Shown here piece after piece: positions 7,459 to 14,099 of a stretch of DNA of 14,337 nt. Source of the DNA: Promethearchaeia archaeon (lineage in GTDB: Archaea > Asgardarchaeota > Lokiarchaeia > Sigyniarchaeales > SOKP01); NCBI GenBank assembly GCA_029856105.1, contig JAHQWH010000222.1, forward strand, positions 1 to 14,337, in the 5' to 3' direction. Position 1 is the first letter of the stretch; each line of letters begins with the position of its first letter. The notes under the pieces are model-generated. The model saw only the letters and a program-made list of their open reading frames with translations. It had not been told where the DNA came from and did not search any database. A program made the position numbers and the translations under genes.

Positions 7459-7497
7459 TATTTTTTTAGTTTTTTATACTATTTTTTTAGTTTTTTT
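7459..7497 (+). terminator. Duplicated oligo-T tract, probable archaeal terminator of the MaoC pair
   Basis: TATTTTTTTAGTTTTTT occurs at 7459-7475 and 7480-7496 (period 21), starting 14 nt after the stop at 7445. Confidence 0.6.
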
Positions 7498-7607: not shown

Positions 7608-10517
7608 TTGAATATTCTGACATTAGACGAAAGAAAAGTTGAAGAATTGATTTTAAGCGGAGGCTATGAAAAAGCCGCTGAAGAACTTTTTGAAATTATT
7701 GAAAATCCAGAGAACTCAAATAAAGAACTACTATACGATAGTTTAACTTTATTAAATAAAATCTGTGATAAGTCACCAGCAATTTCTTTAAGAACTGTAA
7801 AAAACTTAGCAAATACAATAAGTGATCTTAACTCGTGGATTAGATTAGTTTCTTTAGAAATTCTTTATCAAATTTCGATGTATCGTCCAAACTTACTAAT
7901 TGATCTAATAAATAATATAAGGTCACGACTTTTTGATCAGGAACCCTCTATTAGGCGATTAACTGTAAAGATTATAGGAAATTTAATTCTTTCTTTACAC
8001 CTCGATAGAGAAAAGTTACGAGACATTATTGAAGAATTTACAGAGAAATTGATCGATAATGACTGGAAGGTTAAACTTCAGGTTATCAAAACTCTTAAGA
8101 GAATTATAAATCAAGACTACACTAAGATACGAGAATTAGAGCCGTTACTTTCTATCGTAATCGTTAATTTAAGGGACGAAGACGATGATGTTGCGAGATC
8201 ATCCGCGGAACTTTTGAAAATCCTTGGTACATATTTTCTATCTAAGGAAAATATTATGTATGTTTTATTAAACCTTCTTTACAACGAAAAAGCTCGCGTA
8301 AAAGAACTTATTATTTGGCTAATCGGAGAAATAGGAAAAGAAAAATCGTCAGAAATAATTCCAATAATACCAAAATTGATTAACCTTTTAAAAGAAAATA
8401 ACTACCGTATCCAACTTAGAGTAATCGATTCTTTAGTAAACATTGCGGAGAACAATTTTGATCAAATTTGGGCGAACTTAAAAACAGCTTTATATACGGC
8501 CGACTCCGAATTTAGAAATGTAATCATTAATGCGCTGTATCACTTATGTCAAGCTAATATCATGGAAGTTTTTAATTATATCTTTGAAGAATTTGAAAAT
8601 CCCTCTGAAAATGTCAGAGACGCGGTTGCTCTCGTTTTTAAGCGCCTCTATGAAGAGTATCAAGTAGAAATTGAGAACGAAATTGCAAAAATTTTATACC
8701 AACTAGAATCTAAATATTGGCGCCAAAGAAAAAAAACCATTATTCTTTTGAGGAATATAAGCTTCATATTAGAAAGTCAAAAAGTTGCAGTCTGGATTTT
8801 TATAGAATTGGAAAAAATTTTAAAAATTGAAAGCGATCCAGATGTAAACGAAGAAATTATTTATACGATAAAAACTACCAAAGCAAAATTTAAAGAAATT
8901 GAAAAAACAATTCAAAATGTTAACGAAGATTTAGAAATATTTCTTAAAAAAATTCACGAATTCCAAAAAATTCCGGCTCAATTTAGAGAAAAAATGAATT
9001 CATACATAAAAGAATTCAAATTTTACGAGACTGAAATAGAACTAGATAAGGTATACCGCACAATTTTAAAAAAAATAAAGAAATTTAACAAGAGACTAAA
9101 TAAATTCGAGTACAAGAGATTAGCGTTTAACTTAATAGAGGATTGGGAAGAAACTAAAGTTACCATTATTGATGAACTCAGTATTATAAAAGGATTCATT
9201 TCAGAGATTTTTGAAGAAAAGAAAGCAGAATTTACTATTAGCCTTAGATCAAAAGTTAAACTTTTAGAGGACCGTATTAAAGTTTTAAAAGTTCAATTTG
9301 ACTATGTGAAGGCGTATAAACTTCCCGAAAGTTTTGACGAGTTGATATTAGAGAATTTTCAAGATGACGAAATCGAAGAGAGATTCGAACAAATTACACA
9401 ACTTAGAAATTATTTATTCAAACTTGATGACGACATTCGTGAAATTTTAGTACGGAACGTAGAGTTTAACGAAGTTTTTAAGGGTTTGTTAAAAAACTGG
9501 GTTGCTGTTAAGATTGAACTTCAAGAATATTTGAGCGATTTAGATAGAAAAATCAAATCAATAAAAGATAGAATCGTAATCGAAATTCAACGCTCTAATG
9601 GCAACATTAAAGACCAAAAACTTAACATGTTATCTTCAATATTATTCCAAGGTCATATACAATCAGTAATCACGCAAGGAATTGAAGGTCTTAAACGATT
9701 TAACGATAATTTCGTTAATTTAGAATCAAAATTAGGTATGTTGCTAAAAAGGAGTGAATTCTCGGACGCAAGAAAGCTTATAGAAATGAATACTAACCAA
9801 ATTCAAAATTTTATCGAGGATTATGAAAATCAAATAGACAATATTATAGGAAAACTAACTGAAGATAACGATGTTTTTAACCTATATGTAAGACCTTCTA
9901 TTACAAAATTTGTATCTTTTAAGGAAATGCTTATCAATAAATTAAAAATCTTTACACAAAAGAGTACTGATAAACTTTTCTTAAATCAAATAAAATATTA
10001 TCTCGATGTCATGAATCCTATTAAATTGGAGAGTCTTTCCTCTTTTATAGATTTAGATATCGATCTGTTGAAAGAAAAACTTGTAAAGTTCGTTAACAAA
10101 AATAAGCTCAATGCGAGAATTATTAAGGACAGCCTTTATTCGCCAAGGATAGAAGATATTATTGAACCGAAGGATATTCTTTTCTTCAAGAGCATAAAGA
10201 CGATCGGAAATAAGATTTATTTTAATTTTAAATTGAACAATCCAACCAATCTATTGTTTTCGGAATTACAAATTTCTCTTAAAACTCCTGTGTACTTAAC
10301 CTTTTTGAGAAAAGAAAGCTTCCCTAAATATCTATATATTAACGAGTTAAAACCTGGAAATGTGTTTAAGTTTAATTATGTCTTAAGAATCGAACGAAAT
10401 ATTGAAAAAAACTTAACAGACCCAACAGTTGACGAAGTTAACCTTAATATATATTATAAAGACCCTTTCGACATTACACGTAGAATAACTAAGAAGATAG
10501 ATCTTTTACTTCCCTAA
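7608..10517 (+). CDS. Large HEAT-repeat solenoid protein with coiled-coil, PCI/winged-helix-like segment and C-terminal Ig-like beta-sandwich
   Basis: About 9-10 HEAT repeats in aa 1-430 (DLNSWIRLVSLEIL, DQEPSIRRLTVKII, DNDWKVKLQVIKTL, DEDDDVARSSAELL, ENPSENVRDAVALV). Helical/coiled-coil middle. IKLESLSSFIDLDIDLLKEKLVKFVNKNKLNARI at about aa 805-840. Beta-rich tail (FNFKLNNPT..FSELQISL, INELKPG, LNIYYKD). TTG start uncertain. Confidence 0.8.
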   Translation: MNILTLDERKVEELILSGGYEKAAEELFEIIENPENSNKELLYDSLTLLNKICDKSPAISLRTVKNLANTISDLNSWIRLVSLEILYQISMYRPNLLIDLINNIRSRLFDQEPSIRRLTVKIIGNLILSLHLDREKLRDIIEEFTEKLIDNDWKVKLQVIKTLKRIINQDYTKIRELEPLLSIVIVNLRDEDDDVARSSAELLKILGTYFLSKENIMYVLLNLLYNEKARVKELIIWLIGEIGKEKSSEIIPIIPKLINLLKENNYRIQLRVIDSLVNIAENNFDQIWANLKTALYTADSEFRNVIINALYHLCQANIMEVFNYIFEEFENPSENVRDAVALVFKRLYEEYQVEIENEIAKILYQLESKYWRQRKKTIILLRNISFILESQKVAVWIFIELEKILKIESDPDVNEEIIYTIKTTKAKFKEIEKTIQNVNEDLEIFLKKIHEFQKIPAQFREKMNSYIKEFKFYETEIELDKVYRTILKKIKKFNKRLNKFEYKRLAFNLIEDWEETKVTIIDELSIIKGFISEIFEEKKAEFTISLRSKVKLLEDRIKVLKVQFDYVKAYKLPESFDELILENFQDDEIEERFEQITQLRNYLFKLDDDIREILVRNVEFNEVFKGLLKNWVAVKIELQEYLSDLDRKIKSIKDRIVIEIQRSNGNIKDQKLNMLSSILFQGHIQSVITQGIEGLKRFNDNFVNLESKLGMLLKRSEFSDARKLIEMNTNQIQNFIEDYENQIDNIIGKLTEDNDVFNLYVRPSITKFVSFKEMLINKLKIFTQKSTDKLFLNQIKYYLDVMNPIKLESLSSFIDLDIDLLKEKLVKFVNKNKLNARIIKDSLYSPRIEDIIEPKDILFFKSIKTIGNKIYFNFKLNNPTNLLFSELQISLKTPVYLTFLRKESFPKYLYINELKPGNVFKFNYVLRIERNIEKNLTDPTVDEVNLNIYYKDPFDITRRITKKIDLLLP

Positions 10518-10669: not shown

Positions 10670-11707
10670 ATGCTACAAGAAGAAGAGAGTTATCGCTTGA
10701 CACTGCAGACTAAATTATTCGGATGAAACTGTAAACTTGATTCTAAAAAATTAGACGAATTGTTGGCTGGCGCTGGCTTGAAAGGAGATATCGAGGATTC
10801 TGCTGTAATTCCCGTACCAAACACCGATTTAGTACTGGTAAAAAACATTGACATCTTCACACCGATTATCGACGAACCAGATATAATGGGTGAAATCGCT
10901 GCTGCAAACGTAACTAACGATGTTTTCGCGTTAAACGTTCTGGAAATCTCAGGAATGCTAGTATTTCTTGGCTTAAAAAAAAATATGCCTATGCACATCG
11001 CAGAAGGAATATTGAAAGGTATTAGAAATTTCATGGAAAATAAAATACACTCGAAAGTACTTGGAGGACATACAATCTATTCAGAATGGCCTTTAATTGG
11101 CGGTGAAGCTTCAGGATTCGTCAATAAAAACAAACTGATTAAAAAGAACTACGTAGAAGAGGGTGATAAATTAATACTGACTAAACCCGTGGGAAACCAA
11201 GCAATCATGGCTGCATATCGCTTACAAAAAAACAGACCAGACCTCTTAGAAACTTACTCCAAAGCCAAAATCGATAAATCAATCGATTTGGCCATAGAAT
11301 TTATGACTATGCCGCTAAAAAACATTGTAAAGACTATTCATTCTTATCAAGACGTATCTTTCGTACATTCAATGACAGATGTTTCCGGTTTTGCACTCTC
11401 GGGGCATTTAAAGGAGATGCTTCAAGGCTCTAACCTTTCTGCTAATATTAAGAAGGTCCCGATATTTAAACTAGCAAAAGAACTGTCGTACGATTTTGGA
11501 TACAAATTCGATGAATGCGAAATGCCTGAGACCGCCGGGGGTATGCTCCTTTCTGTTGATCATAATTATGCTGAAGAATTCTCCAAGAGACTTGCTAATG
11601 AACATCAAGTGTCTAATTGGATTGTAGGAACAATCGATAACATTAATGAAACTCGACAGGTTCAAATTTCAAAAAATGTTGAACATATCGAAATAACTGA
11701 AATTTAA
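10670..11707 (+). CDS. selD: Selenide, water dikinase (selenophosphate synthetase), selenoprotein, copy 1; 345 aa, Sec19 (TGA 10724-10726)
   Basis: Manual translation from ATG 10670 gives MLQEEESYRLTLQTKLFG-U-NCKLDSKKLDELLAGAG..., in frame with the 10760 ORF. The TGA aligns with the catalytic Cys/Sec of the SelD G-C-x-C-K motif. Other motifs: DIFTPIIDEP, GGHTI, GDKLILTKP.G, TDVSGFALSGH, ETAGGML. A SECIS follows the stop. Confidence 0.95.
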
Positions 11708-11778
11708 CGATGTCAATGAAATAAGCTAAAACACTGTATGTGAGCGCTTATTGAGAGTTCCATCGCAAGACGGCATCG
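11708..11778 (+). promoter_or_regulatory. Eukaryote-type 3'UTR SECIS element of selD copy 1
   Basis: Helix I CGATG(TC)/(GG)CATCG. Core ATGA 11716-11719 with GA 11753-11754. Helix II AATAAGC/GCTTATT. Apical AAAA 11728-11731. Mini-helix CAC/GTG. Side hairpin CCATC-GCAA-GACGG. Confidence 0.92.
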
Positions 11779-12202: not shown

Positions 12203-13231
12203 ATGGAGAAAAAGGAAGTATATAGACTTACTTCACAGGTTAAGATTCACGGATGAAGTTGTAAGCTTGGTTCAAATAGCCTAGAGAACTTACTAGCAAG
12301 AGCGGGATTACAAGGCGATATTGAAGACGCTGCGATCATCCCAGTCCCAAATAGTGATTTAGTAATGGTCAAAAATATTGATGTTTTTACACCTATTGTC
12401 GATGAACCAGAAATTATGGGTCAAATTGCTGCGTCTAATGTAACCAGTGATATATTTGCGATGAATGTTCCAGATATTTCTGGAATGTTAGTATTTTTAG
12501 GGATTAATACTAATACTCCAATGGAAGTAGCTGAGGGAATATTAAAAGGAATCAAATATTTTATGGAAGAAAAAATTAATTCGCAAGTAGTTGGAGGCCA
12601 TACTATATATAGCGAATGGCCAATGATAGGAGGAGAAGCTTCGGGTTTTGCACACAAAGATTCAATAATTCTTAAACAAGGAGTTAAAAAAGGAGATAAA
12701 TTGATTCTAACTAAACCAATTGGCCTACAAGGCACTATGGCCGCTTATAGGACTCTTAAAAATATGCCTGAAATGTTAGAACAATATTCAAAAAGTGAAC
12801 TACAAAAATCGATTGATTATGCTATAGAATTAATGATAACACCAAATCAGAACGTAGTGAAAACTATTCACTCTTATCAAGATTTTTCGTTCGTTCATGC
12901 ACTTACAGATGTTACGGGTTTTGGGCTAAGTGGGCATATAAAAGAAATGCTGCAGAATTCTACCTTATCTGCAATTATTGAAACCATTCCATCAATAAGA
13001 TTTTCAAAGGAACTTTCAGAAGAATTAGGATACGCTTTTGATGATTGTAGCTGTCATGAGACCGCTGGAGGGATGTTGATCGCTATAGATCCCAAAAAGG
13101 TTGAAGAATTTTCAAATACTCTTATTAGTAATAATGTAGAGAATTGGATTGTAGGTACAATTGATAACATTGAACCTGGCTTAGTTAGAGTTGCTGATAA
13201 CGTAGAAAATGTTGAGATTGTTAAGTATTAG
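12203..13231 (+). CDS. selD: Selenide, water dikinase (selenophosphate synthetase), selenoprotein, copy 2; 342 aa, Sec18 (TGA 12254-12256)
   Basis: Manual translation from ATG 12203 gives MEKKEVYRLTSQVKIHG-U-SCKLGSNSLENLLARAGLQGDIEDAAIIPVPNSDLVMVKNID..., in frame with the 12365 ORF. Canonical SDIFAM, GGHTI, LTKPIG and TDVTGFGLSGH. A SECIS follows the stop. Confidence 0.96.
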
Positions 13232-13302
13232 AGATGTCAATGAAATAAGCTAAAACACTATATGTGAGAGTTTATTGAGTTTCCACCCGTAAGGTGGCAT
13301 CT
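13232..13302 (+). promoter_or_regulatory. Eukaryote-type 3'UTR SECIS element of selD copy 2
   Basis: Helix I AGATG(TC)/(GG)CATCT. Core ATGA 13240-13243 with GA 13277-13278. Helix II AATAAGCT/AGTTTATT. Apical AAAA 13252-13255. Mini-helix CAC/GTG. Side hairpin CCACC-CGTAA-GGTGG. 27 consecutive nt (13233-13259) are identical to SECIS1 (11709-11735). Confidence 0.92.
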
Positions 13303-13310
13303 AAAATAAT

Positions 13311-14099
13311 TTATTCCTTAATTTCACCATTCAGATTTATTATAACATCCTTTATTTCTTTCAAAGCTTTTTCAGCCATTTCTTCTCCGTTTTCAACATT
13401 AAAACAGGTTATTGATACTTCTACTTCAACTGAAAGTCCGATCCTTGGGTGTGTTTTAATCCATAACTGAGGATACTTCTCTTCAAGTTTAGTAACATAA
13501 GGAGCTATCTGAGATTCACCAATGCCCATAAATATAAAACCCTTTTCTACGAATTTTCCCCGATTTTCTTTTAATATTGGTTTAATTACGTTAAGAAAAA
13601 TCGCTTTCATTTCAGCGGGAACACCGGGTAGTACGAAAATTGCCGTTTCACCTTCTTTAATTTTCACTCCAGGGGCGGTCCCTCTTATATTTGGTAATGG
13701 TGTCGATCCTTGAGGAAGATGTGCCATTTTTTCTCTTTCTTTGGTCATGCCTTCAAGTTTCAAAATTCCTCTTTCGTAAGCGCGTTCATATGCCTTCTTT
13801 ATAGAGTTATAAGCGTGTTCGTTTAGCTTTATTTCTCGATTTAAACCCTTTGCTATCCCCGCTAAAGTCATATCGTCAAATGTAGGACCAATCCCTCCCG
13901 AAGTAATTATCATATCTGGATTGCGTTTTAAAATAGTTTGTAGAGTATTTGAAATAACCTCAATACTATCTTCTATAGCAGTTATTCTTTTTATCCTATG
14001 CCCGTATTTCGTTATTCTTTTAGCCATCCAATTTGAATTAGTATCTTGGGTCTTTCCAATAAGGATTTCGTTTCCAATTACTAAAATTTCTACTTCCAT
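13311..14099 (-). CDS. CinA N-terminal-like / molybdopterin-binding domain protein (COG1058 pyrophosphatase family), without the PncC domain
   Basis: IGNEILIGKTQDTNSNW, SGGIGPTFDDMT, GTAPG, LPGVPAEMKAIF and GIGESQIAP motifs. Confidence 0.9.
   Translation of the reverse strand: MEVEILVIGNEILIGKTQDTNSNWMAKRITKYGHRIKRITAIEDSIEVISNTLQTILKRNPDMIITSGGIGPTFDDMTLAGIAKGLNREIKLNEHAYNSIKKAYERAYERGILKLEGMTKEREKMAHLPQGSTPLPNIRGTAPGVKIKEGETAIFVLPGVPAEMKAIFLNVIKPILKENRGKFVEKGFIFMGIGESQIAPYVTKLEEKYPQLWIKTHPRIGLSVEVEVSITCFNVENGEEMAEKALKEIKDVIINLNGEIKE

Follow-up and report, generated by a model that had tools for sequence, protein, structure and literature searches.

A conserved hairpin as a probable third arm of the selenocysteine insertion elements of Asgard archaea

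Asgard archaea are the closest relatives of eukaryotes. They are believed to decode UGA as selenocysteine (Sec) by means of SECIS elements, and these elements have been proposed as the ancestors of the eukaryotic SECIS. The eukaryotic elements, of types I and II, share with them a k-turn core containing AUGA, apical adenines, and a position in the 3′ UTR; as portrayed in the text of the papers cited below, they differ in consisting of two helices split by a plain internal loop and in being bound by SBP2. According to the text of three studies, SBP2 is absent from Asgard archaea (PMC4989117; PMC9723677; PMC11227280). The closest described relatives of the elements reported here are the SPS lokiSECIS (Mariotti et al. 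2016, PMC4989117) and the Asgard type II eSECIS-like class (Huang, Xiao and Zhang 2024, PMC11227280). In the text of the latter study, the core is underlain by an internal loop and a lower stem with no highly conserved nucleotides (PMC11227280). A side hairpin, a junction, and a conserved G-Y loop motif are absent from the text, figures aside, of Mariotti 2016 and Huang 2024, and the RNAfold drawing in Figure 5 of the former may show the hairpin without comment. The text of Sun 2021, Peiter 2025, and a 2026 review, figures and some supplements aside, likewise contains no description of such an arm, nor did we find one described in the literature on SECIS elements with three-way junctions or on structured Asgard RNAs with covariation.

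We analyzed a stretch of 14,337 nucleotides (the window; positions 1 to 14,337 of contig JAHQWH010000222.1) from an Asgard archaeon of the Loki type, whose SelD finds its nearest named relatives, at 93–95% identity, among sequences labelled Promethearchaeota. The window carries two selD genes in tandem on the forward strand, 63% identical to one another; in both, a single TGA occurs in frame at the N-terminal Sec site. Paralog 1 (10670–11707) encodes 345 amino acids with Sec at codon 19 (TGA at 10724–10726), and its relatives have a single TGA at the same place; paralog 2 (12203–13231) encodes 342 amino acids with Sec at codon 18 (TGA at 12254–12256). Tandem duplications of selD in which both copies encode Sec are frequent in two genera of the family, many of whose genomes yield two matches. 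Elsewhere in the window are a 453-amino-acid protein (1290–2651) with a weak match to the MIT domain, adjoining a NOG1 GTPase, a perfect 17-nt T-rich direct repeat with a spacing of 21 in the intergenic region after two MaoC-like genes (7459–7496), and a 969-amino-acid HEAT-repeat protein immediately upstream of selD (7608–10517).

A 69-nt type II SECIS element starts 2 nt past the stop codon of each selD gene, in the 3′ UTR; both genes have a UGA in frame at the position of Sec (U19 and U18). In copy 1 (11709–11777, forward strand), helix I is formed by 11709–12 and 11774–77 and a k-turn stub by 11713–14 and 11755–56; a bulge (11715–17) leads to the core GA dinucleotides (11718–19 and 11753–54), which enclose the upper arm (11720–11752). 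Copy 2 (13233–13301, forward strand; z −2.9) has helix I at 13233–36 and 13298–13301, the k-turn pair C13238–G13279, a bulge at 13239–41, core GA dinucleotides at 13242–43 and 13277–78, and an upper arm (13244–13276) with an AAA bulge and an apical ministem. The AUGA…GA core is present in both copies (11716–19 with 11753–54; 13240–43 with 13277–78), as are an upper stem (against a criterion of 7–15 bp), an adenine bulge, and an apical ministem. Judged by these sequence features, the two elements are members of the SPS lokiSECIS/type II eSECIS-like class, with which they share the AUGA/GA core, the short upper stem, the adenine bulge, the apical ministem, the lower stem, and the position right after selD, and from this membership they are predicted to direct Sec insertion. 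A scan of the window against Rfam gave no match to a SECIS family and only two matches, both at chance level.

The initial annotation had noted an additional hairpin on the 3′ side of both elements, and its letters and coordinates proved exact: CCATC-GCAA-GACGG at 11760–11773 and CCACC-CGTAA-GGTGG at 13283–13297. Both hairpins occupy, as noted, the segment that separates the 3′ core GA from the 3′ strand of helix I. The side arm of copy 2 has a 5-bp stem (13283–87 with 13293–97), a CGUAA loop (13288–92) containing the conserved G13289 and the pyrimidine U13290, and a link of zero nucleotides to helix I at 13297/13298. The predicted loop is this pentaloop; a GUAA tetraloop would require the C to be bulged. 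The side arm of copy 1 comprises two base pairs, an A·C mismatch (11762/11771) that the initial annotation had missed, two further base pairs, and the loop GCAA (11765–68). Taken alone, the arm of copy 2 folds at −6.7 kcal/mol (z −2.5) and that of copy 1, which is degenerate and marginal, at −1.7 kcal/mol (z 0.22); close relatives of copy 1 are variable at the mismatched position. The U-A to C-G change reported between the copies (11763/11770 versus 13286/13294) is real, and it falls in the top-covarying pair of columns in the alignment of orthologs.

How much weight the two copies can bear as independent witnesses differs along the element. Up to the 3′ core GA (11709–11754 versus 13233–13278) they differ at only three of 46 positions, and in close relatives (93–99% SelD identity) the upper arm of copy 2 is a different one, so that agreement between the upper arms of the window copies is weak evidence; their near identity suggests recent gene conversion or an assembly artefact. 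The side arms remained copy-specific, and the compensatory change between them is therefore informative. One public contig spans 13229–13500 with two differences and may derive from the source sample.

To place the hairpin in a wider comparison we gathered selD loci from genomes and metagenomes and parsed the SECIS core without using the side arm. The Loki set comprised 97 distinct type II selD elements, aligned with MAFFT and subjected to rule-based gap repair before covariation was ranked. The side stem covaried: 93% of its cells were paired, all five pairs showed two-sided changes, and these pairs ranked 1, 2, 3, 5, and 7 among all column pairs (G-test with APC). RNAalifold predicted the arm from this alignment unaided. 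Mapped on an independent tree of SelD proteins, the five pairs had about 3, 2, 5, 6, and 9 compensatory branches, equaling or exceeding the accepted pairs of the upper stem (4 to 6 on the same tree). Against an approximate tree null, which is a rough one, a single pair reached E < 0.05; two pairs had an E of 0.15, and the remaining ones lay between 0.5 and 1.

The phylum-wide set comprised 211 distinct elements, spread over four gene classes and 11 Asgard families, of which five fall outside the class to which the window belongs, with vhuD, vhuU, and prxL loci from distant genomes included; 119 of the 211 came from one family, and kin are not independent. A side stem with a G-Y loop was present in 204 of the 211, as compared with 28% of dinucleotide shuffles, a background that marks the G-Y-anchored hairpin test as loose. 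(A test based on minimum free energy only, with a background of 52%, was dropped in its favor.) Broken down by gene, the counts were 150/156 for selD, 31/31 for vhuD, 21/22 for vhuU, and 2/2 for prxL. Sequences of the side stem were unrelated across the set, the stem being free in sequence and 4–6 bp long, and the loop G lay 7–13 nt past the core GA in 204 of the 211. Eight selD loci whose core could not be parsed reliably (L090, L091, L100, L122, L126, L136, L137, and L141) were left out of the 211, and in all eight the hairpin is visible by eye; about 12 Sec-coding vhuD or prxL loci, with no confident core within 260 nt, were not scored. We conclude that the small hairpin is very probably a real and conserved third arm of the Asgard SECIS, which on this comparative evidence would be a three-armed structure, apparently an undescribed, phylum-wide addition to a known class of RNA.

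In thirteen selD genes of the family the SECIS is of type I instead of type II, and most of these elements still show the side arm (type I selD loci: L031, L034, L035, L044, L145, L147, L153–L158, L165, and L172); these elements were apparently swapped in from other selenoprotein genes. At L115–L141 (selD of family f31), and likewise at several loci of vhuD and vhuU, the UGA of the SECIS core serves as the stop codon, and the coding sequence contains the 5′ strand of the closing helix.

The proposal that the hairpin makes the element a three-way junction was supported by the covariation of the side stem together with the closing helix, which reached at least 4 bp in 97% of elements versus 42% of mismatched controls; 176 of the 211 elements folded as a multiloop when the core was held open. 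A base pair between a C and the base right after the 3′ core GA, the k-turn pair, held in 97 of the 97 Loki selD elements as C-G or U-A, with six compensatory branches, and the pair next to it held in 84 of the 97. Phylum-wide, the −1b/−1n pair was C-G, G-C, U-A, A-U, or G-U in 208 of the 211 elements, versus 104 on permutation. With a 3-nt bulge, tandem G·A/A·G pairs, and a canonical pair beyond them, the sequences display the standard features of a k-turn, from which a kinked geometry, hydrogen bonds across the strands, and binding of L7Ae are predicted.

The alternative put forward initially was a two-state switch, with the last GG pairing either within the side stem or with the UC by which helix I would be extended. 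As a means of turning Sec insertion on or off, it fared poorly. The two pairings are indeed mutually exclusive, and the ViennaRNA ensemble populates both (0.44/0.27 versus 0.54/0.72 for the competing GG pairings of copy 2), probably because its model has no energy term for the k-turn. The alternative is also formally possible in 70 of the 97 Loki type II selD elements. Its C-G pair, however, is broken in 16–17 of the 97 and shows no double change, the C in question instead pairs in 97 of 97 with the base after the core GA, and outside the Loki type II selD set only 19 of 110 elements would allow it. The comparative data thus reject a conserved switch, which we consider most improbable; breathing of the junction by at most 1 bp is possible.

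What the arm conserves in sequence is its loop. Anchored on the G, the following base is C (86%) or U (14%), the next a purine (87%), and the next A (68%), giving a consensus of N-G-Y-R-A in which R-A usually stands just before the 3′ strand; in the Loki selD loops both the G and the pyrimidine were found in 97 of 97. The initial annotation had seen a GNRA cap, and this holds in part. The loop fits GNRA in both window copies, in 71 of the 97 Loki selD elements, and in 140 of all 211 (66%), so that a GNRA-like fold is possible in two thirds of the loops; the conserved letters, by contrast, are a G followed by C or U. A four-base loop closed by an adjacent pair is found in copy 1 and not in 5-nt loops such as that of copy 2, and for the 5-nt loops about nine compensatory branches supported the pentaloop register versus one the tetraloop register. 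The constraint on G-Y exceeds that on the closing A, which is easier to reconcile with base-specific reading than with a simple GNRA cap. We also considered mimicry of the tRNA-Cys anticodon by the loop and dropped the idea, as GCGA, GUGA, and GUAA loops break the match.

The main rival to such reading is an internal tertiary clamp, in which a GNRA-like loop would reach across the k-turn to dock on the AAA bulge or on the upper stem. The kink could then fold with no need of SBP2, and the arm would be architectural rather than read by a factor. The frequency of GNRA sequences is in keeping with this, 114 loops being closable by the adjacent pair, and so is the placement of extra loop bases, mostly 5′ of the G; k-turns commonly set up tertiary contacts (PMC4005666). 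Yet a pyrimidine invariably fills the second loop position and the last A is the laxer one, the reverse of GNRA constraints, and only 7 of 22 vhuU loops fit the motif. Nor did we find a covarying partner for the loop G-Y, or receptor, within the element in the Loki selD set, although an invariant G cannot show covariation and may still make an internal contact. A further point against the clamp comes from two three-armed elements in the genome of the window (G000, contig C8, minus strand, near 60205 and 60564), each behind an ORF of 45–50 codons with an in-frame UGA. They have no AUGA/GA core and retain both the AAA-bearing upper arm and a side arm whose loop contains GC; provided that they are indeed SECIS elements, the side loop persists where the k-turn does not. 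On balance we regard the clamp as unlikely.

The arm had further been suggested to be specific to selD or to one lineage, and this is refuted by its presence behind vhuD/hdrA, vhuU, and prxL and in all 11 families sampled. An autoregulatory module bound by SelD or its product falls with it: the text of Huang et al. reports the type II form to be enriched in selD (PMC11227280), but the same arm stands behind vhuD/hdrA, vhuU, prxL, and small membrane ORFs, and we give this explanation next to no credence. The genome of the window contains nine further type I elements with a side arm, seven of them behind hdrA-vhuD, vhuU, prxL, or a small UGA-containing ORF, an eighth behind another small UGA-containing ORF, and one without an assigned gene. 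As a control, the arm was present in 11 of 11 selected SECIS elements as compared with 121 of 648 core-like decoys, a contrast that is indicative only, since the eleven were selected on core quality and upstream ORFs after their sequences had been seen. Adding the arm and the k-turn pair to the search descriptor reduced the decoys from 648 to 30, kept 11 of the 11, and recovered one more SECIS; the two features together thus provide a more specific descriptor for SECIS searches. (A loose genome scan with the core only was abandoned, its 143 matches being mostly noise.)

Several elements in this genome may point to genes not yet annotated. SECIS elements lie behind small hydrophobic ORFs of one family on contigs C48 (L176), C122 (near 1342), and C190 (L180) of G000, and these ORFs, with an in-frame UGA in a G-G/V-U-x-C context, are candidate unannotated membrane selenoproteins. 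A complete three-armed SECIS at L174:200–413 (G000, contig C19, near 120158, minus strand) has no known selenoprotein gene upstream; the nearest ORF encodes a zinc-ribbon-like peptide of 37 codons ending in TGA and then TAA, and a C-terminal Sec is possible.

A second general role, suggested initially as protection of the 3′ end, is that the arm stabilizes the mRNA or links it to surveillance independently of Sec insertion. The arm does lie in the 3′ UTR, where a convergent gene ends about 10 nt away, at 13311, and is G+C-rich in a genome of 32% G+C. But it is enclosed by the closing helix of the SECIS, which makes a 3′-end protector unlikely, at a near-fixed distance from the core; it is rare behind core-like decoys; and a stabilizer would have no need of an invariant loop G. 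We think this role improbable.

The reading we prefer, and hold to be the likelier one, is that the SECIS is a fixed structure of three arms and that the Sec-decoding machinery reads its G-Y loop instead of relying on contacts with SBP2. As the sequence comparison shows, the tandem G·A core is followed by the 3-nt bulge and a Watson-Crick pair (often two), the arrangement of a standard k-turn with a stub of 1–2 bp; on the non-bulged strand, a short linker leads into the 4–6 bp side stem and then directly into the closing helix, forming the three-way junction. The side stem would stack on helix I, for which the zero-nucleotide link at 13297/13298 is suggestive. A protein of the L7Ae family, probably L7Ae or L30e, or Mg could hold the kink, and the k-turn would place the side stem beside the upper arm. 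The G-Y loop and the apical adenines would then present two sequence-specific handles to the Sec-decoding complex, to be read by SelB, the ribosome, or another Asgard factor, with the arm supplying specificity or anchoring as SBP2 does in eukaryotes. The genome has just two matches to the L7Ae family, which we read as L7Ae and L30e; its SelB is of the archaeal type (480 amino acids), and a search of that protein gave no match to a winged-helix domain.

Conservation, on which the recognition role is based, makes this role somewhat more probable than its opposite, and docking where SBP2 is absent, as the initial annotation proposed, is a plausible function for the arm. Against recognition, a weak stem with a mismatch is tolerated in copy 1 and in the close relatives of that copy, and, according to the text of the methanogen study, a minimal fruA SECIS, whose cloning oligonucleotides leave no room for an arm, works in vivo (PMC11881835). 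A phylum-wide arm with a near-invariant loop G is nevertheless a good candidate for the contact point in archaeal 3′ UTR elements, and it identifies nucleotides to mutate and a full-length RNA to use as bait.

Bacterial SECIS elements lie in the coding region beside the UGA and are read by winged-helix domains. Their apical loop resembles the side arm in being a short hairpin with a conserved loop G, a pattern given in the text of one study (PMC13188914), and is read by SelB in bacteria; the likeness is an analogy only. No winged-helix domain was found in the SelB of this genome. The methanogen eaSECIS (Peiter et al. 2025) is likewise an archaeal 3′ UTR signal and differs, as described there, in having a GAA/A bulge in a two-stem hairpin (PMC11881835). 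A Loki vhuU element was inactive in the methanogen test, with a quoted energy of −6.9 kcal/mol in the text of that report (PMC11881835). Three Loki vhuU elements in our set gave −7.7 to −8.4 kcal/mol for the core only and −19 to −22 kcal/mol for the whole element; going by energies alone and by the text of the report, the construct seems to fit the core better than the whole, and the arm may explain the failure of the Loki element in Methanococcus.

More tentatively, and at a confidence short of even, we envisage the Asgard SECIS as a three-armed scaffold with a replaceable k-turn, in which the apical adenines and the side loop with its G-Y serve as the two defining handles. The arm would be an RNA stand-in for the anchoring provided by SBP2, lost in eukaryotes when SBP2 arose, and an incomplete element would underlie both the two-helix model in print and the single heterologous test, which failed. 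The phylum-wide presence of the arm would also imply its loss on the way to eukaryotes.

The nearest structural parallel is the k-junction (Wang et al. 2014, PMC4005666; Li et al. 2023, PMC10573300), which shares with the Asgard SECIS the k-turn features, a third helix on the non-bulged strand, and, probably here too, coaxial stacking of that helix on the closing helix. In k-junctions the third helix branches opposite the loop, loop bases pair with connector bases, and L7Ae did not fold them (PMC4005666; PMC10573300). The placement in the Asgard elements is different: a 3-nt bulge and a Watson-Crick −1b/−1n pair come first and the branch follows 1–2 bp further out, covariation putting the stub and the linker between core and arm while the alternative pairs show none. 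Because the −1b/−1n pair precedes the branch, binding of the L7Ae type may survive in the Asgard SECIS.
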